From a virus: a stretch of 64,000 nucleotides of DNA. The position numbers and the translations under genes were made by a program. The first letter of the stretch is position 1; the number at the start of each line of letters is the position of its first letter. Below are positions 6,328 through 53,108 of the stretch, piece by piece. The stretch is from positions 1-64,000 of IMG/VR virus record IMGVR_UViG_3300024054_000269; one strand, written 5' to 3'. The notes below the pieces were generated by a model. The model saw nothing but the letters and a program-made list of their open reading frames with translations. It ran no database searches and had not been told where the DNA came from.

Positions 6328-8860
6328 TGATAGGGCTTTCCCATTTTTAGGGCCTTTGCAAATTTCAGCTTTGGCTCGTGAATTAGGTCACGACGTTAAT
6401 GTTGCTGATTTGACTGGATACAAGCAAAGAAACCCAAATGTTATTCATGCTAACTATGACGATGTTATGCATGAAGCTAAACAAAGACTTTCTGAACATG
6501 TAAAAGATGCTGATCTTGTTGGGTTTTATTCATTGGCGGCTCAACATCCGCAAGTTGTTAAACTTCATAATTTTGTTAAACAAAATTTTGGTTGTATTAC
6601 TGCGTTGGGCGGACCACATGCTAATACAACACCAGAGCGTTGTTTAGATGATGGATTTGATTATGTTGTTGTTGCAGATCAAGGTGGAGGAGGAGGGGAA
6701 CAAGGATTTTTAGAGTTGTTAAATAGAGTATCAAATAACAAAAAATATTTATCCAATGGGAGAATTATTAAAATACCAAGTCGTTCTAGTAATGAAATTT
6801 ATTTAAATGACAAGTGGCCGTTACCAGCACGTGATTTAATAGATTTAAATAGCTATTATTATTATATAAATGGAGAACGTGCAACTTCTATTGTATCAAC
6901 GACCGGCTGTCCATTTGCTTGCTCTTTCTCGGTAACAGGCGATACTCTAATATTTACCGATCGTGGGTTTGAAAGAATTGATTCCTTAATTGCAGGACAA
7001 CATGAAGTAAAAGCGTGTAATCATGGTGGCCATATTTTGAGGTATAAATCTGATAGAATTGTTTCTACCCATCTTGGCCAAAAAACTATAACATATGCAA
7101 TAAAGGAAGGAATTCGTCCAGTATTTCATATTAAGACAGATAATGGTCTTATTGTTAAGGCCACCAAAGAACACCTGTTTTTATCTGTTGATCATGGGCA
7201 ACTAATTTGGAAATCTGTTGGCAACTTGAAGATTGGTGACTGGCTTGTTTTGAAATCACCTGATCACAAATGGCCGCATGATTATGTTAAAATTCCTTCA
7301 CCCCATCCAATAACAAAATTTGCAAATGGTCCTCGTGTAGTCCCATCTTTTTTAACTGAGGATGTAGCATGGTTAACAGGTTTTATAATTGGTGACGGAT
7401 GTTTGCCAGCTGATGGTAGACCAGCAATTCATTTTAGTGTGACGCCAAAAACTCATTGGAAACTAATCAAAATTATTAAAAATTTGTTTGGCGTTCGTCT
7501 AAAAACATATAAAACGCATCATACTAAGAAATGTCGTCATGGTTGGGTTTATGGGCGAGCGATTTACGATTTTTTTGTTAAGTGTCTTGGTATATCACCA
7601 AGTTCAAAATTACGAATACCAGAATTGATCAGACAATCACCAAAATCGGTAGTAGAAAGTTTCATTGACGGGTTGTTAGATGCTGATGGATATAGTGGAA
7701 AAGGTAGAACGCCATATTTAACAACAGTTTCAAATGATTTGGCAGTCGAATTTTCTCAATTACTTTTAATGCTTGGGAAAACCCCGTATATACATCATTG
7801 TGGGCCATACGATTCTTTTTCTGCGCGGAGCCATTATCGAGTTGGATACTATGCTCATGACAGAATTCCAACAAAAAAAGCACTATATAAATCACCAAAA
7901 TCTGATGCTTGGTATTGGAGAACACCTAGAAAAAAAAGTGGGTTTTTAGGTGTTCGACGAACTACGTTAAATAAATCTGGTTTACTTCATCAATTGAATA
8001 TTGATGGGTATCATTATGTTAGAGTTTCTTCTATTACAACCGGAATTTCGGAGCCTGTGTATGATTTAGAAGTTTTAGGTGATCATAGCTTTCTTGCTAA
8101 TGGATTCATATCTCATAATTGTTCACATTGGGATGGTTACAGAAAATTAGAAATGAAATCTCCGAAAAGAATTAATGAAGAAATTAAATTAATAAAATCA
8201 AGTTATGGGTGGAATTCGATTATGTTTTATGATGATGAAATTAATTTAAGGTCCGATTTTAAAGACGAATTTCTTAATATGTTGAGAGATGCCAAAATAA
8301 CCTGGAGAGCTTTCTTTAAAAATGGGAAAAATTTGACGATTGAATCAATTTTTAAATTGATGGCTGAATCAGGCTGTGTTCAATTGTGTACTGGTGCAGA
8401 AAGTGCTGACCCAAAAATTCTTAGAGATACTAAAAAAGGTGCTACTTTAGAGGATAATACTAATTTTGTTAAATATTGTGTTAAATACGGAATAAACGCG
8501 AAGCTATTTACCCAGGTTGGTTTACCTGGCGAATCTCCAGAAACGATAGAGGCTTTGAGAATTTGGTTAATACAAATGGCGAATGAAGGACTTGCTGATG
8601 CTGATGTGTCAATTACGACGCCATATGAAGGAACACCTTTATTTAACAATCCAGAAAAATTCGACATACATTTTGATAAAGATAAATTAGATTACTCAAA
8701 TGACCAGATATTATATAAAGGAACGCCGGGCGAATACCAGTCTTGGGTGTGGCATGATAAACTATCAAAAGAAGATATAGTTTCAGCACGCCAAATGATT
8801 GAAGATGAATTTAGGAAGGCGGCTGGTCTTAAACCTCTGCTAGCCAAGGATGATGGATAA
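6284..8860 (+). CDS. Cobalamin-binding radical SAM protein interrupted by an intein
   Basis: N-terminal B12-binding-like region (PFLGPLQIS, ALGGPHA); CPFACSF|C motif split by intein; FYDDE, GAESAD, GLPGES. Confidence 0.85.
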   Translation: MRIVLVIPPSPFLLDDRAFPFLGPLQISALARELGHDVNVADLTGYKQRNPNVIHANYDDVMHEAKQRLSEHVKDADLVGFYSLAAQHPQVVKLHNFVKQNFGCITALGGPHANTTPERCLDDGFDYVVVADQGGGGGEQGFLELLNRVSNNKKYLSNGRIIKIPSRSSNEIYLNDKWPLPARDLIDLNSYYYYINGERATSIVSTTGCPFACSFSVTGDTLIFTDRGFERIDSLIAGQHEVKACNHGGHILRYKSDRIVSTHLGQKTITYAIKEGIRPVFHIKTDNGLIVKATKEHLFLSVDHGQLIWKSVGNLKIGDWLVLKSPDHKWPHDYVKIPSPHPITKFANGPRVVPSFLTEDVAWLTGFIIGDGCLPADGRPAIHFSVTPKTHWKLIKIIKNLFGVRLKTYKTHHTKKCRHGWVYGRAIYDFFVKCLGISPSSKLRIPELIRQSPKSVVESFIDGLLDADGYSGKGRTPYLTTVSNDLAVEFSQLLLMLGKTPYIHHCGPYDSFSARSHYRVGYYAHDRIPTKKALYKSPKSDAWYWRTPRKKSGFLGVRRTTLNKSGLLHQLNIDGYHYVRVSSITTGISEPVYDLEVLGDHSFLANGFISHNCSHWDGYRKLEMKSPKRINEEIKLIKSSYGWNSIMFYDDEINLRSDFKDEFLNMLRDAKITWRAFFKNGKNLTIESIFKLMAESGCVQLCTGAESADPKILRDTKKGATLEDNTNFVKYCVKYGINAKLFTQVGLPGESPETIEALRIWLIQMANEGLADADVSITTPYEGTPLFNNPEKFDIHFDKDKLDYSNDQILYKGTPGEYQSWVWHDKLSKEDIVSARQMIEDEFRKAAGLKPLLAKDDG
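6929..8119 (+). mobile_element. Intein (397 aa) with LAGLIDADG homing endonuclease
   Basis: Starts SVTGDTLIFTDRG, block B VKATKEHLF, LAGLIDADG-like WLTGFIIGDG and FIDGLLDADG, ends VYDLEV...FLANGFISHN followed by Cys+1 (8120-8122). Confidence 0.88.
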
Positions 8861-18839: not shown

Positions 18840-19018
18840 ATGAATTCTGTAATCATCCAATAAGACACATAAACTGTTACTGTTATTAATCTATAATCAT
18901 CAAAAAATTTTAAATTCTGTAATCATCAAATTTTAACAGAAAATGTACTACTAAATAGTATTGGAATTAGATTGTAAATAAAATTTAATTGGTTGATTTG
19001 GGTGATTACAGAATTCAT
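18840..19018. repeat. 21-bp imperfect inverted repeat with internal direct copy
   Basis: ATGAATTCTGTAATCATCCAA (18840-18860) vs reverse complement of 18998-19018 (20/21); AATTCTGTAATCATC repeated at 18913-18927. Confidence 0.8.
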
Positions 19019-20671
19019 AGAATGTTAATCACCCAGTATAGTCATAAAATGGAAGCTCAAACATGTGTTGGTTGTTTTGTTGAAAAACCACTATCTGATT
19101 ATTTCAATAATGCAATTAAGAAAAATGGTAAAGATTCAAAATGCAAAGTATGTAGAAAATTAAGAAACAAAGAATGGTCAAAAGATAATGAAGAAAAATG
19201 CAAGTCAATACGGAAAGCATATTATGAAAAAACTTATTGGGATAATAGAGAAAAACGAAAAATAAGATATCAACTTGAACATGATAAAATATTAGAACAA
19301 AAACGTGAGTATGTGTCAAGAACAAGAGAAGAAAGGAAGAAATATCTAAAAGACTATAGAAATAGAAATAAAGATGAACTACAAATTCTCAGTAAATTGA
19401 ATAAACGATTCATAATTGATGGGGTATTGGATTTACTTGGTCCAATATGCATTGATTGTGGTGAATTGAACAGGCATTTTTTGACAGTTGACCATAAATT
19501 GAACAATGGGAACGAAGAGAGACACCTGAGCAGTATTGGATGGAAAAGGAGAATATTAAATGGTCAATCAAATAAAGATGATTATCAAATTTTATGTTTT
19601 AATTGCAATTTAGGTAAATATAGATTAAACCCAACAAACCATCAAAAAGGTAGACAAATTATTGGTGAATTAATACTATGTCCGAAATGTTTGTTTGAAA
19701 AAGATCGATCAGAATTTTCCAATGATTTATCTAAGAACAGATCTTGTTTTGAATGTCAGCGATTTATGGACACTTTTGTTAAAGTTAAAACAATAAATTT
19801 TGTTGGAGGTAAATGTGCATGTTGTGGAATGTCAGAACCACATAAATTAACAATTGATCATATTAAAGGTGATGGATGGTATAGAAGAAAATTTTTGAGT
19901 GAAGGTTCTGGCGTTGATTTTTATAAAAAAATCTTGAACCATACTATAGATTCTAAAGGTTTTCAAATCTTGTGTTGGAATTGCAATATGAGTAAACACA
20001 TAAATAATGGTGTTTGTTTGCACCAAATGCTATTTAAATCAGAAAAATTAAACAGAAATAGACCAACGCTGACCAAAAATAACAATAGCTCTGAAAATAA
20101 AGATTTTAATTTTATTAATATCACAATAATTAAGGGTTCTAACCTCCAGTCAAAGAAATTGTTCAAAGATTATCACTACAACAAATTCGGGCGCCCTCAA
20201 ACCGCTATCTATTCAGCCATTCTTGACGATAAAGTCATTGCAGCTGTCAAATTTTGTACGCCAGTTAGGTTAGAGGTTGCAACGACGCTTGGCTATGAAT
20301 ATAAAGATGTAATTGAGCTTGATCGATTTTGTATTCATCCTGAATATCAGAAAAAGAATTTTGCATCTTGGCTAATGTCGCGTGTGGTCAAACAGTTTAA
20401 AACTGACTTTCCTGACATCAAGGCTTTAGTTTCATTTGCTGATACTCGTTTTGGTCATGTTGGTACTATTTATAAGGCTTCAAATTGGAAGGAACTTGGT
20501 CAAACTTCACCAAGTTACGTCTACGTCGATCTTGATGGCAATGAAATAAACAAGAAAACTCTATATGGTTATGCAAAACGTAGAAACATGAAAGAACGTG
20601 AGTGTGCTGACCGGCTCGGTCTCAAGAAAGTGCCGACGCCGCCAAAAATCAAATATATTTACGAACTTTAA
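18989..20671 (+). CDS. Tandem HNH-like endonuclease domains fused to Mom-like GNAT domain
   Basis: CIDCG..LTVDH..N..ILCFNCN and CACCG..LTIDH..ILCWNCN; C-terminal IELDRF, SFADTRFGHVGTIYKASNW as in Mu Mom; likely start ATG 19049 (TATAGT 6 nt upstream). Confidence 0.75.
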   Translation: MVDLGDYRIHRMLITQYSHKMEAQTCVGCFVEKPLSDYFNNAIKKNGKDSKCKVCRKLRNKEWSKDNEEKCKSIRKAYYEKTYWDNREKRKIRYQLEHDKILEQKREYVSRTREERKKYLKDYRNRNKDELQILSKLNKRFIIDGVLDLLGPICIDCGELNRHFLTVDHKLNNGNEERHLSSIGWKRRILNGQSNKDDYQILCFNCNLGKYRLNPTNHQKGRQIIGELILCPKCLFEKDRSEFSNDLSKNRSCFECQRFMDTFVKVKTINFVGGKCACCGMSEPHKLTIDHIKGDGWYRRKFLSEGSGVDFYKKILNHTIDSKGFQILCWNCNMSKHINNGVCLHQMLFKSEKLNRNRPTLTKNNNSSENKDFNFINITIIKGSNLQSKKLFKDYHYNKFGRPQTAIYSAILDDKVIAAVKFCTPVRLEVATTLGYEYKDVIELDRFCIHPEYQKKNFASWLMSRVVKQFKTDFPDIKALVSFADTRFGHVGTIYKASNWKELGQTSPSYVYVDLDGNEINKKTLYGYAKRRNMKERECADRLGLKKVPTPPKIKYIYEL

Positions 20672-20952
20672 TGTATTATCACGTTATGGCTAAATTTGTT
20701 TATGTAGTTTATAAACCAGAACAGAGTTGGCTTGACATTCGAAAAGATGGTATAAATTTTAATGTTCTTGAAATGATTGCTGATTTTCCTGAATCTAGAC
20801 GTGATGAATTGATCAACAATCCTGAAAAATATTTGGACAGGGTCTTTGGTGATAGACTTATTTATTGGTCATTTATTCCTGATTTGAAATATAAAGAATA
20901 TGAAAAAACCCTAAATAACCTAAAAATTTGTAGTGAGATCTTAGAGGCGTAA
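20671..20952 (+). CDS. Small hypothetical protein
   Basis: 93 aa ending SEILEA. Confidence 0.55.
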   Translation: MYYHVMAKFVYVVYKPEQSWLDIRKDGINFNVLEMIADFPESRRDELINNPEKYLDRVFGDRLIYWSFIPDLKYKEYEKTLNNLKICSEILEA

Positions 20953-20953
20953 T

Positions 20954-21379
20954 ATGATTCATACTATAAATTTTCCAGTTTATATAGAAGATTGTGATCA
21001 GTTTTGGAAAAAAGTAACGGACGTGACAAACGTTCCCGAGTCTCTTCTTATCGATAAATTCCAAAAAGCGCTGGGAGATTTTATTATGTCAAATCCTAAT
21101 TTTGTGCCAGATTTAATGAAACCTACAGTAATAAATTTCGTTGACGCTAATGGATGTGAATGGAGTTCTGGTTATAAATTCTTTGACAAAGATGAAATTT
21201 CGTGCAGTGAGGTACTTGAAGAATCCCAACCTTGTTCTGCCATCGTTAAATCTTATGAAATTTTCATAAAGAAAAGATACGCAGTCATCCAAAGGGCCTT
21301 TAATTTACTAAAACTCAAACGAGACCCAAATTTGTATAGCCAACTAAATTTGGTTCAGATTATTTTTCATAGCATTTGA
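20954..21379 (+). CDS. Hypothetical protein
   Basis: 141-aa ORF converging on the CRISPR array. Confidence 0.55.
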   Translation: MIHTINFPVYIEDCDQFWKKVTDVTNVPESLLIDKFQKALGDFIMSNPNFVPDLMKPTVINFVDANGCEWSSGYKFFDKDEISCSEVLEESQPCSAIVKSYEIFIKKRYAVIQRAFNLLKLKRDPNLYSQLNLVQIIFHSI

Positions 21380-21401
21380 ACGCTTCGAAGTCATGCGTCT
21401 C

Positions 21402-21585
21402 GTTCCGGCTTTTTAGTTGCCGGACAAACTTTGATACCCCGTGAAGTCTCCGCCGTTCCACTTCTGGAGGTCGCGTTCCGGCTTTTGAGTTGCCGGACAA
21501 ACTTTGATACCTTGGCGTCGCCGAACGTTGGCTTCATGCCCTCCAACTCGTTCCGGCTTTTGAGTTGCCGGACAAACTTTGATAC
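21402..21585 (-). CRISPR. CRISPR array: 3 x 36-nt repeats, 2 full spacers (37 and 39 nt)
   Basis: Minus-strand repeat GTATCAAAGTTTGTCCGGCAACTCAAAAGCCGGAAC at 21550-21585, 21475-21510, 21402-21437 (last has one change); TCCGGC/GCCGGA hairpin at 3' end; could be 37 nt since a G follows each copy. Confidence 0.93.
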
Positions 21586-21591
21586 AATCAT

Positions 21592-23553
21592 TCACGATGA
21601 AAGCGTTTCTAGTGCTGTTTCGTTGGCGTTTTGCGAGATATTCTTATTTGATTTCGTATTAACATTCCTTTCTTGGTTTTTCAGTTGTTTTTCAGATGGT
21701 CCGTTAGGCTTGCGAGAAACTCCTGGGTTTGGAGAACCATTTGATTGCTCGCAACGTTTCAACAAAATATGGCAGGCATTTTCATCTTGATCCCAATATT
21801 TTTCACAGTTTGAGCATTGGAGAACCAAAATTTCTTGATTTTTCCATTTATTAATGTGTCCGCACAAATGACATTCCCTGGTTGTATTCTCTGGATCAAC
21901 CTTTATAATATTTGGTTTACCAAAAGCTTGAATTAACTCTAAACGAAGCTCACCAGGTGATCCAATTGACATAATGCAATGCGTATAATCTTTCGGGTTT
22001 TCATTCTCTGGGGTCGAGTTTTTTATAAATTTTCTAAGATCCATATCCTCAACAACTAATGTTTTATATCTTTGTGATAAATTAGAAGCTATGTTTCTGT
22101 ACAAATGTTGACGATTCGATATTGTCTTTTTGCGTTGATCGGCTGCCCATTGAATCAAATGCCGGTCTTTACGGCGCCAAAGTTCTAAATAAAACAACAG
22201 TTGAGTGGCTTGGTCTTTAATCCCAGCCAAATTCGCCCACGTAAATATTTCGTCCTTTGTCGCAAATAAATCTAATTTAGACGAAAATCGATAATTTTTC
22301 CAATCAGAACAAATTTTAAAAATAAGATCTTTGTCTGATTCAGTTAACCATCGATTAACAATCGAGGCTAATTTGCCATGCATTCTCCACTGCGAGATAT
22401 TTAACGTTGCTTCTGGCATCCAATTTGGCAAACCTGAAAGTTTAGATTTAATGGCTTCTGACAAAATTGATAAAGCAACATTAAAAAATTCATCTGAGTA
22501 ACCAATTAATTTAGACGAATGCTCTAAAGCCGTTTGAATGTGATTAGGAACTAAAATTTCTTGCTTGAACCCATCATTTCCAACCACGAATCCGACTCTT
22601 ATACCATCAGGACGAACACGCCAACCAAGATCGAACGCTATTGCACCGCTAGTTGGCCTGACTTTTACGAATTCATTTGATTCGAGTGTTAGTTGTAGTT
22701 CAAATTCAGTATGAAGACCAATTCTACGGGTTGAAATCCAAGCCCAAGTAATGATTGCATCATCTGGCAATTTTCTATGCAAAGTTATTGGAAATTCGGC
22801 CCAAATTGGATTTCGTGACTTGTCTGAACCAACTCGAATTCTGACTTTTGACCTTGATAAAGGCGGCCTTACTTTTTGCTTACCATTTTTAATAAAATAA
22901 GCCTCAGGCGAAACCGGGTTGATCTGAATCATAGTTGATTTTTGATCAAAAATATCTTTTACGGTCGGTTTGTTTTGTAGCTGAACACCAATACGACCAT
23001 TTCCATCCCAACGGTGAAATTTTTGATCAGCTTGAGATGACTTGGAAGATTCTACCGCCTTTTCAATTAAGAGATAAGTTCCAAAATAAACTCCACATTT
23101 TGATCTAGCCAATTTAACTTTCTCAAGCATATCAGAAGTCAGTTTTTTATCGGCAGCTTCCAAAACTTCATTTGAATTTGCTTCATCACGTGCTTGTTTA
23201 AGTGACTCGTAAACTTGTTTCTTTTCGGCTTTCAAGTCGGAAATATGCTTTTGTAGTTCAAGATTTGAAACGCGTTTTCGAACTGATTTTCTAATTGACC
23301 TAAGTTCATCAATTGCTTTATCAAGCCTTTCTGAAACGTCTTTATATTTAACTTCAAATTCGGCTAAGTTTGGACACAATGAAGAACGCACAGTACGATA
23401 GGCTGAGCGTCTTTCTTGTTCTATTTGAACAAGATCGTTGTAATATTTATGTGCAAGTTTTAATTGCTCCCAAACAATTTGGGCATTTGAGGTTGGGCGT
23501 TTGCAACTAAATGACCAGACTCGGACTGGCAAATCTGACATTCTACGACGCAT
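21592..23553 (-). CDS. cas12m: Type V CRISPR effector, Cas12m (V-U1/C2c4)-like, TnpB-derived; RuvC triad appears intact
   Basis: LAHKYYNDLVQIE, FHRWDGNGRIGVQLQ, VRIRVGS..PIWAEFPITLHRKLP resemble V-U1 proteins; RuvC-I AFD308LGWR, RuvC-II VVE502DM, CxxC..CxxC zinc finger, RuvC-III QD590ENA; array 6 nt downstream. Confidence 0.82.
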   Translation of the reverse strand: MRRRMSDLPVRVWSFSCKRPTSNAQIVWEQLKLAHKYYNDLVQIEQERRSAYRTVRSSLCPNLAEFEVKYKDVSERLDKAIDELRSIRKSVRKRVSNLELQKHISDLKAEKKQVYESLKQARDEANSNEVLEAADKKLTSDMLEKVKLARSKCGVYFGTYLLIEKAVESSKSSQADQKFHRWDGNGRIGVQLQNKPTVKDIFDQKSTMIQINPVSPEAYFIKNGKQKVRPPLSRSKVRIRVGSDKSRNPIWAEFPITLHRKLPDDAIITWAWISTRRIGLHTEFELQLTLESNEFVKVRPTSGAIAFDLGWRVRPDGIRVGFVVGNDGFKQEILVPNHIQTALEHSSKLIGYSDEFFNVALSILSEAIKSKLSGLPNWMPEATLNISQWRMHGKLASIVNRWLTESDKDLIFKICSDWKNYRFSSKLDLFATKDEIFTWANLAGIKDQATQLLFYLELWRRKDRHLIQWAADQRKKTISNRQHLYRNIASNLSQRYKTLVVEDMDLRKFIKNSTPENENPKDYTHCIMSIGSPGELRLELIQAFGKPNIIKVDPENTTRECHLCGHINKWKNQEILVLQCSNCEKYWDQDENACHILLKRCEQSNGSPNPGVSRKPNGPSEKQLKNQERNVNTKSNKNISQNANETALETLSS

Positions 23554-23558
23554 TTAAC

Positions 23559-23566
23559 AAATTACA
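23559..23566 (-). promoter_or_regulatory. TG-TAATTT -10 box 5 nt upstream of the cas ATG (leaderless)
   Basis: Same TAnnnT-N5-ATG geometry as many other genes here. Confidence 0.55.
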
Positions 23567-23596
23567 TTAGGGTCAAATAAATTTACAATTTTAGTA

Positions 23597-24289
23597 TTGT
23601 TGAACATGACAGTCATAGCTGTAGTCAATAAATCAAAACGTGTGACATCGTCGGAAATTAAACGTATGGTAAATGCCTGTAATATTCAAGTCAAACGAGA
23701 CGTTGCACCAATTTGGGATGCCACCCCATGGTCGGTTAAATACTACGAAAATAAATTACCAAAAAATTCAATATCAATAGTAATATTTGACAATGCCGAT
23801 GAAGCTGACACTTTAGGATATCATAGTGAAACGCCAGATGGTAAACGATATGGACGTGTATTTGTGAATCCAATATTGAGATCGGGCGGTGATATATTAT
23901 CTAAACCAAACAGCGTGTCAGTAACATTGTCGCATGAAGTGTTGGAAGCATTTATAGACCCAGATATCAATTTATGGGCTGAGGATGACAAAGGACGAAT
24001 GTGGGCGTATGAAATTTGCGACCCAGTCGAAGCAACATCATACCGTATAGCTAACGTAGCCGTTTCAAATTTTGTAACGCGTTTGTGGTTTGACTCTGAA
24101 AATCAGCCAGGATCAAAATTTGATTATTTACAGCTTACAAAGCGAGCTTTCCAGGTTCTACCAGATGGTTATGCAGTATGCCGCGCAGGAAATCAAAAAG
24201 AACAAATTGTTTGGGGCAAAAAATATCCAAAATATAAAAAATTAGCAAAACGCCACCCAGCAGCCAGAACAGCACAACGTCATTTTTGA
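23597..24289 (+). CDS. Putative zincin-like metalloprotein
   Basis: LGYH, SHEVLE (HExxE), YEICDPVE; probable start ATG 23606. Confidence 0.5.
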   Translation: MLNMTVIAVVNKSKRVTSSEIKRMVNACNIQVKRDVAPIWDATPWSVKYYENKLPKNSISIVIFDNADEADTLGYHSETPDGKRYGRVFVNPILRSGGDILSKPNSVSVTLSHEVLEAFIDPDINLWAEDDKGRMWAYEICDPVEATSYRIANVAVSNFVTRLWFDSENQPGSKFDYLQLTKRAFQVLPDGYAVCRAGNQKEQIVWGKKYPKYKKLAKRHPAARTAQRHF

Positions 24290-24295
24290 ATTTTT

Positions 24296-24832
24296 TTGAT
24301 AGATATAAATATGTTAAGCAAAATTGCGAACAAGATTGCGAACAAAATAGCACAAGATCATACAAAAAGCGACTTAAAAGATCTAATCACTAAGATCGTT
24401 TCGTTCGGTTACAAACCGATTATTGGGTTGATGGAACTTGGAGGCGGAAGTGTGTATGATGTTTGGGCTTTGTCAAAAAATCCAGACGCTTGGGAACCGT
24501 ATAAGGGCAACAGATACGTTAAAAACTCAGAAAGTTACGTTATTGGATATGAATATAATGATGAATTGACTTCACAAAATATGGCTGAGGAGATGATTTA
24601 CGAAGAAACTAGCCAAGATTGGCTTCTAGAAGGTGAAAAATCAAAAGAAGTGAATACTGAGAAGTATAGATTGATACCCATTGGTAATTTAATCTCCAGA
24701 ATTGAAGGGCATCCAGGTACTTTAGAAAGAATAAAAGACATACTGTCAGCAGTCGATCCAGAATTAAGTCAAACTGCGGAAGTTTTGGAAAAAGATATTG
24801 AATATTGGTCTGAAATCAGACTAGACAAGTAG
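24296..24832 (+). CDS. Hypothetical protein with N-terminal KIANKIANKIA repeat
   Basis: 178-aa ORF; 12-nt tandem repeat near start. Confidence 0.6.
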   Translation: MIDINMLSKIANKIANKIAQDHTKSDLKDLITKIVSFGYKPIIGLMELGGGSVYDVWALSKNPDAWEPYKGNRYVKNSESYVIGYEYNDELTSQNMAEEMIYEETSQDWLLEGEKSKEVNTEKYRLIPIGNLISRIEGHPGTLERIKDILSAVDPELSQTAEVLEKDIEYWSEIRLDK

Positions 24833-24833
24833 A

Positions 24834-24841
24834 TGTAAGTT
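24834..24841 (+). promoter_or_regulatory. TG-TAAGTT -10 box directly upstream of the degenerate array
   Basis: TAAGTT at 24836-24841; N5 spacing puts +1 near 24847, inside the degenerate 5' end of repeat 1. Confidence 0.5.
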
Positions 24842-24842
24842 A

Positions 24843-25068
24843 ATTTTGAAATTTGTCTGGCAATTCAAAGGCCAGAACGATGAGCCAAGGCGTTAAAGCT
24901 TGTTCGGTAGCCAAAAAACCGGAACACTTGTGCCCGTTTCTATCAAAGTTTGTTCGGTAACTCAAAAACCGGAACTACTGAGTACAAGTCATAAACCTAT
25001 CCGGTGGTTCAAAAACCGGAGCCACTTGTAGATGATTTAAGCTTGTCTAGTAGCTAAAAAACTAGAAC
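24843..25068 (+). CRISPR. Degenerate mini-spacer CRISPR-like array: five variant copies of the Cas12m-array repeat, 10-14 nt apart
   Basis: 36-nt units at 24843, 24890, 24940, 24987, 25033; unit 3 CTATCAAAGTTTGTTCGGTAACTCAAAAACCGGAAC is 32/36 identical to the canonical repeat; 6-bp stem and 9-nt loop kept in all five. Confidence 0.88.
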
Positions 25069-25078
25069 CGAACCTGCA

Positions 25079-25570
25079 TCACGATTCAATCATTTCCTTT
25101 GATAATTGTTCATTAACAAATTTCAATAATTCTGATCTTACATATGCACCGGCTTTTCTTAATTTTGGTCTGTGGGTCAATCTTCGACGTCTTCTACATG
25201 CCGCGAAAAAATGACCAGAAGTTGGCTTTGTTGAATAATCAATATAGTATATGTTTTGGTTTTGGTTTTGGTTTTGGTCAGCGTGTATGTCAACGCGAAT
25301 TAATAATGAATATTTTGATATTAATATTTGTATCACGCCTAGTTTTTGATTTAATTTATATTTTATGATATGATTTCCGCATGTCTGATTCGGTATAACT
25401 GATAATGGGTGTTTGTCAATTGATTTTATGAATGCCTTTATTCCATTTTCATGTTTCATGTTTCTGATAAATGCCACGATTTTGATTTTGTAACAGTCAG
25501 CCTGATCTCTGTGCGTCGCCATCGTGGCTTCACGTGCGCGGAGGATTTGAGGCCCAAATTTATTGTACAT
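25079..25570 (-). CDS. Hypothetical protein
   Basis: 163 aa, QN repeat, ends KEMIES; TACCAT-N5-ATG. Confidence 0.55.
   Translation of the reverse strand: MYNKFGPQILRAREATMATHRDQADCYKIKIVAFIRNMKHENGIKAFIKSIDKHPLSVIPNQTCGNHIIKYKLNQKLGVIQILISKYSLLIRVDIHADQNQNQNQNIYYIDYSTKPTSGHFFAACRRRRRLTHRPKLRKAGAYVRSELLKFVNEQLSKEMIES
25253..25276. repeat. (GTTTTG)4 hexamer repeat encoding QNQNQNQN on minus strand
   Basis: Visible directly. Confidence 0.85.
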
Positions 25571-41365: not shown

Positions 41366-43021
41366 ATGTTGGATGTTGAAAAATATTCAATCTTGACTGA
41401 TAGTGGAAACAAAAAAATTATATTTAAATGTGAATTTTGTTCAAACAAATTTGAAACATTGTACAAGACTTTCTTACGTAGCAAACATGGTGCTTGTATC
41501 AAATGTAGATCATTAGCATCTGCATATTCACAAACCAATTCATCTAAAAATAAACATGAATTTTATCTTGAAAGAAGAAAAAACATAAATAAAAATCTGT
41601 TTAATATTGAAGCTACTATTGAAAAATTTGGTTATTCACCATTAGATCTGGTTAATGGTTCTAAGAAAAGAATAATAGCTAAATGTGAATTTTGTTTATT
41701 AGATTTCGAAACTCAATTTGACGTAATCAATAACGAATCAAATTTAATTGCTTGCAAAAAATGTGACGCTATTGCGTCTTCATATTCCAGGTCTAAAAGC
41801 ATTGAAAACAAACATGAATTTTATTTATCAAAAAGACCGAAATTAAACATTGATTGTCTTGATATTGAGGCTACAATTGAAAAATTTAATTATTCACCAC
41901 TGGATTTAAGCACATATTCTGCGAAAATTATAGTGGCTAAATGCGCATATTGTAGCAAAAAACTTGAAATTAGAATGTCTAAATATTCGCTTCGCGAAGG
42001 AAGGATTACGTGTTGGGGGTGTATGAGGAAAAAGACTGTCGAAACGCTAAAATTGAAATATGGTGTTGAATGCACATTGCAAATACCATCTGTTCTTAGC
42101 AAATTATCTAACCCAAAAACCGAGCAAATAGTCGAATCAGTGTTGAAAACTAGGTATAAATTAGATTATGTTCGCAATCATTCTATTGGTATTTATTCTT
42201 TTGATTTTTTCGTACCAAGTTGCAATTTGTTAATTGAATGTCATGGCGATTATTTTCATGACTTCAAAAAATTTGGTTATAGCGGGACACCAAAAGACAG
42301 AGCTAAGTCAACCTATGTTGAAAAATACACAAATCATAAATTAATTTGGGTTTATGAGCATGAAATTCACATAGGTAGAATCAATAAAATATTAGATTAT
42401 CATATACATAAGATTCTTGAACCACAATTGAATGTTGATTTGAAATATATAGAATTTAAACAAATAAATAACAAAGACGCACATACATTTTTATCTCAAT
42501 ATCATTACATTGGCAATCTCGGAACTGTTGCGACTTCGTTTGGAGCATTTTTCGGCGAAGTATTGATTGCTGTGTGTGTTTTTGGTGGTATTACACGTCA
42601 TCAATCAATTAAAAAGATTAACAAATTCTGTTCAACATCTTTTGGTCCAAAAGATGTTAGGGAATTAAGAAGATTTTGTATTAAACCGAACATCATTACT
42701 AAAAATATGGCAAGTTTCTGTTTGAAAAAATTTATTGATTTATATAATGATTACAATTCAAACATTAAAGCAATAATAAGCTTTTCAGATCCAACTGTAG
42801 GAGACATAGGAACTATATACAAAGCTTCAAATTGGAAACAAATGTCAGATTCAATCAAATCATATCATTATGTAGATCCAAAAACTAATCGTCAGATTCA
42901 TAAAAAGACAGTGTGGGACATGGCTAAAAGCAATCATATGAAAGAACAAGACTTTGTAAATAGTTGTGGATTGATAAAGGTTGTGGAATTGCCAAAAAAT
43001 GTCTGGCTGAAATTATTTTAG
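41366..43021 (+). CDS. Zn-ribbon repeats + PD-(D/E)XK (Vsr/DUF559-like) endonuclease + Mom-like GNAT domain
   Basis: CEFC repeats; YSFDFF..LLIECHGDYFH; RELRRF, ISFSDPTVGDIGTIYKASNW. Confidence 0.7.
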   Translation: MLDVEKYSILTDSGNKKIIFKCEFCSNKFETLYKTFLRSKHGACIKCRSLASAYSQTNSSKNKHEFYLERRKNINKNLFNIEATIEKFGYSPLDLVNGSKKRIIAKCEFCLLDFETQFDVINNESNLIACKKCDAIASSYSRSKSIENKHEFYLSKRPKLNIDCLDIEATIEKFNYSPLDLSTYSAKIIVAKCAYCSKKLEIRMSKYSLREGRITCWGCMRKKTVETLKLKYGVECTLQIPSVLSKLSNPKTEQIVESVLKTRYKLDYVRNHSIGIYSFDFFVPSCNLLIECHGDYFHDFKKFGYSGTPKDRAKSTYVEKYTNHKLIWVYEHEIHIGRINKILDYHIHKILEPQLNVDLKYIEFKQINNKDAHTFLSQYHYIGNLGTVATSFGAFFGEVLIAVCVFGGITRHQSIKKINKFCSTSFGPKDVRELRRFCIKPNIITKNMASFCLKKFIDLYNDYNSNIKAIISFSDPTVGDIGTIYKASNWKQMSDSIKSYHYVDPKTNRQIHKKTVWDMAKSNHMKEQDFVNSCGLIKVVELPKNVWLKLF

Positions 43022-52045: not shown

Positions 52046-52142
52046 TTAAAACTATTTTAATTGTAAATACCAAGGCTATGGTATGGTTAGCCAGAGGCTG
52101 GTTAGTATCTGTCTGGCGATCCAAAGACCGGAGCAATGAATT

Positions 52143-53108
52143 ATGGACGAAGATTTTCTTGTTGAATTAGATAACAAATTAGCAAACATAGGTTATGAAA
52201 CTGTTTGGAAGGTGGAAATTGGCGGTCATTTGATTTGGCTGTCTCCTCCGTCTCAAACTGAAAATATGAAAATTAATGAGACTATGACAAATCAGTCTCT
52301 TGGTATTCATATTTTGTCTGAAGTTAAACGCACAACTCTTTCATATGTAATAGTTGGTCTTGATGATATAGATTTTCGTCAACATGATAAATATGGACCA
52401 TTCCCATCAAAGAAAGACGGGAAACCAACTTATCTGTCAAGAGACAGATATATGTATGCAAAATTAGCAAATTGGCCAGCTCAAATGATTGATGATATAT
52501 TTTCAGTTTTCACCGATCTTATGACAAGTTATGAAATAGAAAATTTGAAAAATATTGAATTTAAGAATAAAAAGAGTCAACTTGAGGAACTTGAGGAACT
52601 TGAGATAAGGATCCAGAACATCAGAGCTGAGCTTGGCATGCCAAGGTTGATTGAAGCAACTGATGAACCTACTAAACAAGAGAAAAAAGCTGCAGAAGAG
52701 GCAGAAAAAGAATTTGAAGAAGAGTTAGAGGCTGAGGTGCTTAAGGCGCAAGAAGAAGCGCAAGAAGATACCGAAGAGGCGCAAGAAGATACCGAAGAGG
52801 CGCAAGAAGAGGTTGTTGAGATAAAGCCCGTTGCCCCAAGAATTGTTCCGCCAACCCAAGATCACCCAAAGCCTAAAATAGAGGATGTTGATCCAAAGGT
52901 TGCTCAACGTGCTCGTGAATTAGCTCAAATTGAAAGTGCGCCAGTTAGAGTAAGCGATGGCAAACAAGTTTATGTTGGTATGCCATCTGTTTCGAATGAA
53001 ACAATTGAAAAGAAGTCACAAGATAAACTTGATCCAAAGAAGATAGTAATAGACGCTCCGCCGCAAGGCGGTAGAAACCCGCGTTTCCAACCACCACCTA
53101 AGATTTAA
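52143..53108 (+). CDS. Putative tail assembly chaperone
   Basis: Position between tube and tape measure; acidic low-complexity C-half. Confidence 0.5.
   Translation: MDEDFLVELDNKLANIGYETVWKVEIGGHLIWLSPPSQTENMKINETMTNQSLGIHILSEVKRTTLSYVIVGLDDIDFRQHDKYGPFPSKKDGKPTYLSRDRYMYAKLANWPAQMIDDIFSVFTDLMTSYEIENLKNIEFKNKKSQLEELEELEIRIQNIRAELGMPRLIEATDEPTKQEKKAAEEAEKEFEEELEAEVLKAQEEAQEDTEEAQEDTEEAQEEVVEIKPVAPRIVPPTQDHPKPKIEDVDPKVAQRARELAQIESAPVRVSDGKQVYVGMPSVSNETIEKKSQDKLDPKKIVIDAPPQGGRNPRFQPPPKI

Follow-up and report, generated by a model that had tools for sequence, protein, structure and literature searches.

We analysed a 64,000-nucleotide (nt) stretch of viral DNA, hereafter the window, which forms the first 64 kb of the 182,302-bp IMG/VR virus record IMGVR_UViG_3300024054_000269, and found that it carries a phage-borne type V-M CRISPR (short palindromic repeats, clustered and regularly interspaced) locus without an adaptation module, in which a single Cas12m effector is accompanied by two guide arrays of different kinds. 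Array A, with three near-identical 36-nt repeats, follows cas12m immediately downstream and shares its strand. Array B is found on the opposite strand, behind two genes and 1.3 kb upstream of where cas12m starts, and has five diverged scaffolds with guides of only 16–20 nt between them. We consider it probable that both arrays feed binding-only silencing, with array B providing hard-wired, space-minimised guides and array A providing acquired ones. One effector with a uniform and a diverged array had been proposed previously from the letters of the DNA alone (the sequence-only reading), and all of these elements were present, including a uniform array with spacers of the stated 37–39 nt (39 and 37 nt) and the two genes, encoding an HExxE and a KIA-repeat protein, between cas12m and array B. 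The underlying picture stands, in which a single effector is served by two guide sources that are distinct both in place and in evolution.

The record has a CheckV completeness estimate of 40%, so that about 60% of the phage is missing, and its length at this completeness identifies the source virus as a huge phage; its G+C content is ~35%. The effector matches the Pfam family Cas12f1-like_TNB (PF07282), and a phmmer search against the PDB returned 23vw_A ("CRISPR-associated DNA-binding protein Cas12m"; E = 5e-67) as the best solved relative, aligned in two stretches (residues 13–402 and 455–599) that span most of the protein, followed by 23vu (UnCas12m4a), 8pm4 (GoCas12m) and 8hhl (MmCas12m2) with E values of 1e-27 to 3e-23. 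By these sequence criteria the effector belongs to Cas12m, type V-M, and the earlier family call of V-U1 was right, V-U1 being the former name of this subtype. Its RuvC triad consists of D308, E502 and D590 (Asp-Glu-Asp, D-E-D), the cysteines of a CxxC...CxxC zinc finger are located at 561–564 and 580–583, and its relatives (~30) show 25–41% identity. No second Cas12-type gene is present in the 182-kb record, cas12m being the sole one, and neither Cas1 nor Cas2 was found across the 182 kb.

We then asked whether the diverged units of array B share the fold of the array A repeats, using an alignment of eight units (three from array A and five from array B) in which the helices were named by alignment column. 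The scaffold comprises a 6-bp stem (columns 14–19 with 29–34) and a 4-bp pseudoknot (columns 8–11 with 20–23). Standard pairs filled 98.6% of the cells of both helices (69/70), compared with 87.1 ± 2.1% in shuffled alignments, none of which reached the observed pairing (0/500), and sliding the partners lowered pairing to at most 53%. Compensatory changes on both sides were seen in six of the ten pairs, three per helix, and double compensatory changes in 12 cells as opposed to 4.0 ± 1.4 in the shuffles, while a covariance model built on the stem scored all eight units at 39–55 bits. We conclude that all eight repeat units carry the Cas12m-type CRISPR RNA (crRNA) fold. Because both helices are kept through compensatory changes, the divergence of array B is not what neutral decay would leave but reflects selection for the fold, and its units appear to be under selection for binding by a Cas12m-type protein. 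Diverged repeats with a retained fold also agree with the earlier suggestion that array B is a fixed, probably regulatory guide set. Scaffold identity is 60–87% over 30 nt among the array B units and 63–90% between these and the array A repeats, and the longest exact run common to array B units is at most 12 nt, as compared with 23–36 nt within array A; runs this short would hinder recombination, in line with the idea, likewise put forward in the sequence-only reading, that repeat divergence guards the array against it.

A scan of the 182 kb with the covariance model for solitary scaffolds yielded a best extra match of 20.7 bits (E ~0.009), which we took for low complexity given its extremely A+T-rich site (15% G+C), with all other matches at or below 16.3 bits, and Rfam returned nothing in the window. 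A generic hairpin-plus-pseudoknot scanner was dropped because it was too noisy in G+C-rich loci. A weak repeat-like match at 20686–20722 (+), at the start of the open reading frame (ORF) 20671–20952, scored 16.3 bits (E 0.33) and is probably due to chance. A solitary scaffold-like hairpin at 52099–52134 (+; 14.6 bits, E ~1) combines a stem of 5 bp with a pseudoknot of 3 bp and ends in a GC tail; it is intergenic and located just before an ATG at 52143; its 3' strand could double as a ribosome-binding site, and it, too, may be a chance occurrence.

The apparent length of the array B spacers depends on the frame in which they are measured. Counted from a 36-nt repeat they are 10–14 nt long; counted from a 30-nt scaffold, they measure 17, 20, 17 and 16 nt, which is the mature guide length. 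The units end at 24878, 24925, 24975, 25022 and 25068, with periods of 47, 50, 47 and 46 nt. Since repeat columns 1–6 are not conserved in array B and the pseudoknot begins only at column 8, the working scaffold is ~30 nt. Published Cas12m crRNAs place stem and pseudoknot in roughly the last 29 nt of the repeat (PMC10442227; bioRxiv 10.64898/2026.03.26.714355), and nucleotides -36 to -30 are not modelled in the solved Cas12m complexes (PMC10442227). Self-processing of pre-crRNA has been published for PmCas12m, MsCas12m and MmCas12m; for PmCas12m and Cas12m2, one cut in the pre-crRNA falls inside the repeat and another at position 17–18 of the guide, with efficiency dropping beyond 20 nt (PMC10442227; bioRxiv 10.64898/2026.03.26.714355), and the trimmed Cas12m guide forms a 17-bp heteroduplex, with an optimal guide length of 17 nt (bioRxiv 10.64898/2026.03.26.714355). 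As the array B guides are of mature length, they are not sub-functional short guides, and, because trimming occurs at 17–18 nt, spacers of 37–39 nt and of 16–20 nt should yield an equal working guide length. Array B would, on this analysis, be an array without wasted nucleotides. The presumed fifth guide overlaps the stop codon of the convergent ORF 25079–25570 (-). Guides B2 and B4 (within 24926–25038, +) have a 5'-proximal hexamer, ACTTGT, in common, and B3 holds its reverse complement, ACAAGT, which could reflect a common target motif, intra-array pairing or chance.

The repeats of array A are identical but for one loop base. Its spacers have a G+C content of 62–65%, compared with 35% for the phage, from which we conjecture a high-G+C host or rival element as their source; phiKZ-like phages on Pseudomonas offer a comparison. 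Both spacers (21438–21549, -) are stop-free when read as coding sense strand. A further stretch behind the last repeat (21380–21401) ends where the neighbouring ORF 20954–21379 (+) stops, and we infer that it may serve as a guide. Array A would then hold two or three conventionally acquired 37–39-nt spacers from G+C-rich coding DNA.

To place these arrays in context, we compared ~20 homologous Cas12m loci (labelled L0xx), all in phage-like contexts, in which effector and array share a strand and the array comes second. L006, L014, L019, L020 and L023 have uniform arrays, the longest with 23 repeats, and compact or diverged units were found downstream of the effector in seven loci (L007, L010, L011, L012, L015, L016 and L017). 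These comprise a diverged block followed by four uniform repeats in L007, five diverged units with periods of 41–48 nt followed by two uniform repeats in L010, eleven diverged units in L011, and sixteen units with periods of 44–73 nt in L012, where register shifts left no usable comparison of repeat divergence with unit period. Across the 18 units of L010 and L011, stem and pseudoknot were paired in 91% of cells, with compensatory changes in eight of ten pairs. The window thus exemplifies a habit seen throughout the clade; special to its locus is the physical splitting of the two guide classes into two transcription units. In L016, whose array repeats fall into two or three variants, one 12-nt spacer occurs twice (7307–7407 and 7642–7742), in units of 48-nt period inside an array of 71–74-nt period. 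The unrelated loci L007 (8830–8854) and L018 (near 6740) have a 13-nt string in common in their array regions, which may be a common spacer or target.

Next, we aimed to identify targets of the guides. Comparison of all guides with the available 182 kb revealed nothing beyond chance and no 11-nt anchored match, on which grounds self-targeting of the phage was rejected for these 182 kb. Within the locus (20.5–26.5 kb), array B guides gave no 5'-anchored match of at least 8 nt, and four flanking regions, including the cas12m promoter region, contained no match of 9 nt or longer; CreR-like autoregulation through the locus promoters was rejected on these grounds. Outside the phage, a blastn search with array A returned only matches with E values of at least 0.7 from cultured phages and plasmids, codon-degenerate patterns of both array A spacers had 0 matches in 185,579 species genomes, and exact 24-mers had 0 matches for spacer A1 in IMG/VR and 0 for A1 and A2 in JGI metagenomes. 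Array B guides B1–B3 were searched in IMG/VR only, where the B2 18-mer had 0 matches, the B1 17-mer one and the B3 17-mer four, all in a virion structural gene of one phage lineage. As the reversed-sequence control for the array B 17-mers gave 9 matches, those of B1 and B3 are attributed to chance.

These searches bear directly on the possibility that array B is a CreR/CreA-type regulator of its own cas12m or of another phage promoter, or that its scaffolds titrate Cas12m, which we judge unlikely. Degenerate mini-arrays beside cas genes autorepress systems of types I-B, I-E and V-A (bioRxiv 10.1101/2023.03.10.532045), and array B is situated 1.3 kb from cas12m, across a common divergent promoter region. 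It also resembles CreR/CreA and Cracr RNAs, which have degenerate effector-binding repeats and provide repression guides, sometimes multiplexed, on phages (bioRxiv 10.1101/2023.03.10.532045; 10.1101/2024.10.29.618823), in that its repeats are degenerate, keep their fold and are found both near a cas gene and on a phage. The second hallmark of these RNAs, a partial (~10 nt) match to a cas or toxin promoter flanked by a protospacer-adjacent motif (PAM), was not found in 20.5–26.5 kb, and five different guides exceed what autoregulation would need. Moreover, CreR/CreA and Cracr work with an effector that cuts and is usually the host's, through matches of ~10–12 nt in its cas promoters or in toxin promoters, whereas array B accompanies the phage's own effector, which probably never cuts, and matches no promoter in the locus; the types described for CreR/CreA and Cracr (I and V-A) do not include V-M.

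Quite unlikely, too, is decay, in which array B would be what remains of an old CRISPR array, its spacers cut down by deletions and its function lost. Trailer-end repeats of arrays often degenerate, some units in relatives have guides of 10–14 nt and no target was found, as might be expected of a relic; however, decay would break the helices, contrary to the pairing and double compensation described above, the periods are tight (46–50 nt), and the short guides of two related loci, L050 and L051, are more conserved than synonymous sites. These loci belong to a subclade with an Asn-Glu-Asp (N-E-D) triad and stem from different samples; their effectors are 90% identical, with a third-codon identity of 71.6%. 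Their homologous compact guides match at 11/13, 13/13 and 13/13 positions, while the scaffolds preceding the first two guides have changed with compensation, and L051 has gained two extra units relative to L050. A binomial estimate with a neutral rate of 0.716 gave P ~0.01 for the first two guides and ~3e-4 for all three, providing modest evidence, from relatives only, that compact guides are maintained; in this pair they change less than synonymous sites do. In both loci, a conserved promoter-like box, TTGACAAC, precedes the compact array and follows the first repeat (L050:2520–2680, L051:4830–4990). Behind the TTGACAAC box comes a long hairpin, likewise conserved, whose arms measure ~20 nt and whose centre varies; it may be a structured RNA or an insulator.

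The sequence-only reading had further proposed that guide length decides between cleavage and binding, with a D-E-D Cas12m acting as an active nuclease on the long guides of array A and only binding with the short guides of array B. We regard this as very unlikely. The triad is intact; in the case of Cas12a, guides complementary over ~10 nt (CreR, Cracr) lead to binding but not to cleavage, whereas complete matches are cut (bioRxiv 10.1101/2024.10.29.618823), and Omura et al. left open DNA hydrolysis by Cas12m clades 3 and 4 (PMC10442227). Cutting cannot be deduced from the residues, however, since all of eight Cas12m orthologues, with D-E-D (four), H-D-D (two) or N-D-D (two) triads, bound double-stranded DNA in a PAM-dependent manner and none cleaved it (Bigelyte et al., PMC11013384), and rebuilding D-E-D in Cas12m2 did not restore cleavage (Omura et al., PMC10442227). 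Trimming to 17–18 nt whatever the spacer length, with array B guides of 16–20 nt, likewise speaks against an outcome set by guide length. In addition, the first RuvC Asp is often Asn among the relatives, one of which has N-A-D, and compact diverged units are found beside effectors with this Asn (L010, L011 and L007). Both D-E-D and N-E-D effectors occur with uniform and with diverged arrays, as exemplified by L012, where a diverged array accompanies D-E-D, and L020, where 22 uniform repeats accompany N-E-D. The clade can therefore do without the catalytic Asp, and a link between the type of triad and the type of array was rejected. Nothing points to DNA cutting by the phage Cas12m, and its non-cutting is predicted from the orthologues. 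Genome surveys should therefore not treat a Cas12m as a cutting enzyme on the strength of an intact D-E-D triad.

It is likewise very unlikely that array B is an RNA anti-CRISPR (Racr/Cracr) that sequesters or reprograms a host-encoded Cas12m. Multiplexed arrays of crRNA-like units are known from phages, which use them to hijack the Cas proteins of the host, and single repeat units are described as RNA anti-CRISPRs (review PMC11656645). A Racr, however, is a mimic of a host CRISPR repeat on a phage lacking the cognate effector, whereas here the phage's own cas12m is 1.3 kb away and has repeats with the array B fold, and in the relatives compact units come immediately after the phage cas12m and share its strand.

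Returning to binding-only silencing from both arrays, the following course would account for the locus. Judging by the behaviour of the family, Cas12m would cut its own pre-crRNA just upstream of the ~30-nt scaffold and again ~17–18 nt into the guide, then bind PAM-flanked DNA through a 17-bp R-loop and block transcription or replication without cutting. Array B, probably transcribed with, or just behind, its two upstream genes, would deliver one scaffold and one mature-length guide per unit. Its scaffolds would have drifted apart under selection for the fold, as expected of old, fixed guides no longer renewed by acquisition, and would by now have too little identity for repeat–repeat recombination. 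The two arrays would thus share one outcome, silencing, and differ in origin and turnover; the targets may lie in the host, in a rival element or in that 60% of the phage which is not yet sequenced. Several points weigh against this account. Orthologues with no more than ~35–40% identity are the source of the assumed PAM, processing sites and absence of cleavage; zero targets were found for any guide in the databases searched; some units in relatives have guides of only 10–14 nt, too short for a stable 17-bp R-loop; and three other contigs of the window phage are 100% identical, so that the evidence for guide conservation comes from relatives only.

A broader proposal, which we put forward tentatively and hold to be somewhat short of an even chance, is that phages of this clade use CRISPR as a hard-wired multiplexed silencer, in which a non-cutting effector and a natural, non-repetitive array of minimal crRNAs, with scaffolds diversified against recombination, employ fixed guides to repress host or rival genes during infection, here beside a small acquired array. 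If the compact array is functional, the virus would keep private, heritable CRISPR-interference guides apart from adaptive spacers, making RNA-guided reprogramming of hosts or competitors by phages directly testable. Together with dozens of others from related loci, the five natural scaffold variants amount to a ready stock of Cas12m handles that differ in sequence but are equivalent in fold, and such varied handles, at 46–50 nt per guide unit, would be suited to stable non-repetitive multiplex arrays for a DNA binder of 600–650 aa.

TldR proteins offer a parallel: they are reportedly compact RuvC-fold proteins on mobile elements whose fixed, non-acquired guide represses a chosen gene; they are said to belong to another protein family and to use a single, long, omega-RNA-derived guide with no multi-unit CRISPR-type array. 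These TnpB-like nuclease-dead repressors with fixed guides are named in bioRxiv 10.64898/2026.03.26.714355. Also comparable to the window are the characterised V-M systems (MmCas12m2, GoCas12m, MsCas12m and PmCas12m), which have a homologous effector, a 36-nt repeat with stem and pseudoknot, spacers of ~36–39 nt and no adaptation genes, as found here. Their crRNAs function without a trans-activating crRNA (tracrRNA); no tracrRNA search was made at the window locus. The window differs from them in that its system is encoded by a huge A+T-rich phage and includes a second array, whose units consist of a scaffold and a mature-length guide and whose scaffolds have diverged with compensatory changes. 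We found no second compact array in PMC10442227, PMC11013384 and bioRxiv 10.64898/2026.03.26.714355, and full-text and term searches of the literature returned no compact, structure-conserving diverged arrays beside Cas12m. Phage-borne V-M has been mentioned for prophages (review PMC11656645). MvCas12m of myxophage MV-1 is, like the effector in the window, a phage-encoded D-E-D Cas12m with an array, without cas1, cas2 or cas4 and without identified protospacers; unlike the window, MV-1 has one consensus repeat and eight spacers, and a second diverged compact array is not reported (bioRxiv 10.64898/2026.09.14.751636). Its authors assume nuclease activity (bioRxiv 10.64898/2026.09.14.751636), an assumption that lacks support in the biochemical literature.

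The coordinates of the locus are compiled in Table 1.

Table 1. Features of the type V-M locus in the window (positions in nt from its first letter).
Feature	Position	Strand	Basis or remark
Possible orphan third guide of array A	21380–21401	-	follows last repeat, no closing repeat, ~55% G+C
Array A, three near-identical 36-nt repeats	21402–21585	-	covariance model, 54–55 bits each
Array A repeats	21550–21585, 21475–21510, 21402–21437	-	one differing loop base
Array A spacer, 39 nt	21511–21549	-	between repeats
Array A spacer, 37 nt	21438–21474	-	between repeats
cas12m (type V-M, former V-U1) effector, 653 aa	21592–23553	-	Pfam, phmmer, RuvC motifs
Divergent intergenic region, cas12m / HExxE gene, 43 bp	23554–23596	both	promoter-like hexamers on each strand, consensus matches only
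HExxE protein P0032, SHEVLE motif	23597–24289	+	motif, model, family search
KIAN-repeat protein P0033, orphan	24296–24832	+	three KIAN/KIAQ repeats at its N-terminus
Array B, five diverged 30-nt scaffolds	24849–25068	+	covariance model, 39–52 bits each
Array B scaffolds	24849–24878, 24896–24925, 24946–24975, 24993–25022, 25039–25068	+	alignment and fold
Presumed fifth array B guide	25069–25085	+	extent inferred from 17-nt rule

We also examined the two genes between cas12m and array B, whose co-occurrence with Cas12m had been suggested as a check. The HExxE protein belongs to a family of >1,165 relatives of ~235 aa in phages and bacteria, with no Pfam or PHROG family, and in a sample of 27 the residues H110, E111, E114 and D118 were invariant, giving the signature H..SHE..E...D. 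Its structural model is confident (predicted local distance difference test, pLDDT, 92) and shows a weak resemblance to the metzincin/zincin protease fold (E 0.003–0.05, template modelling score ~0.3). A homologue was found at only one of ~20 Cas12m loci (L024, ~4 kb from the effector), so the two genes are not conserved partners. This low co-occurrence, together with a family of >1,165 members as compared with ~30 effector relatives, led us to reject the intervening genes as Cas12m accessories, and the HExxE protein is probably not a CRISPR component. For the KIAN-repeat protein, relatives were not found and the model is of low confidence. Both genes are neighbours that may be on one transcript with array B. 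On the other side of the locus, two genes from array A, 18989–20671 (+) encodes a protein of 560 aa that carries a GNAT domain of the Mom family at its C-terminus, and a domain paralogous to it (36% identity) is encoded at 42431–42997 (+).

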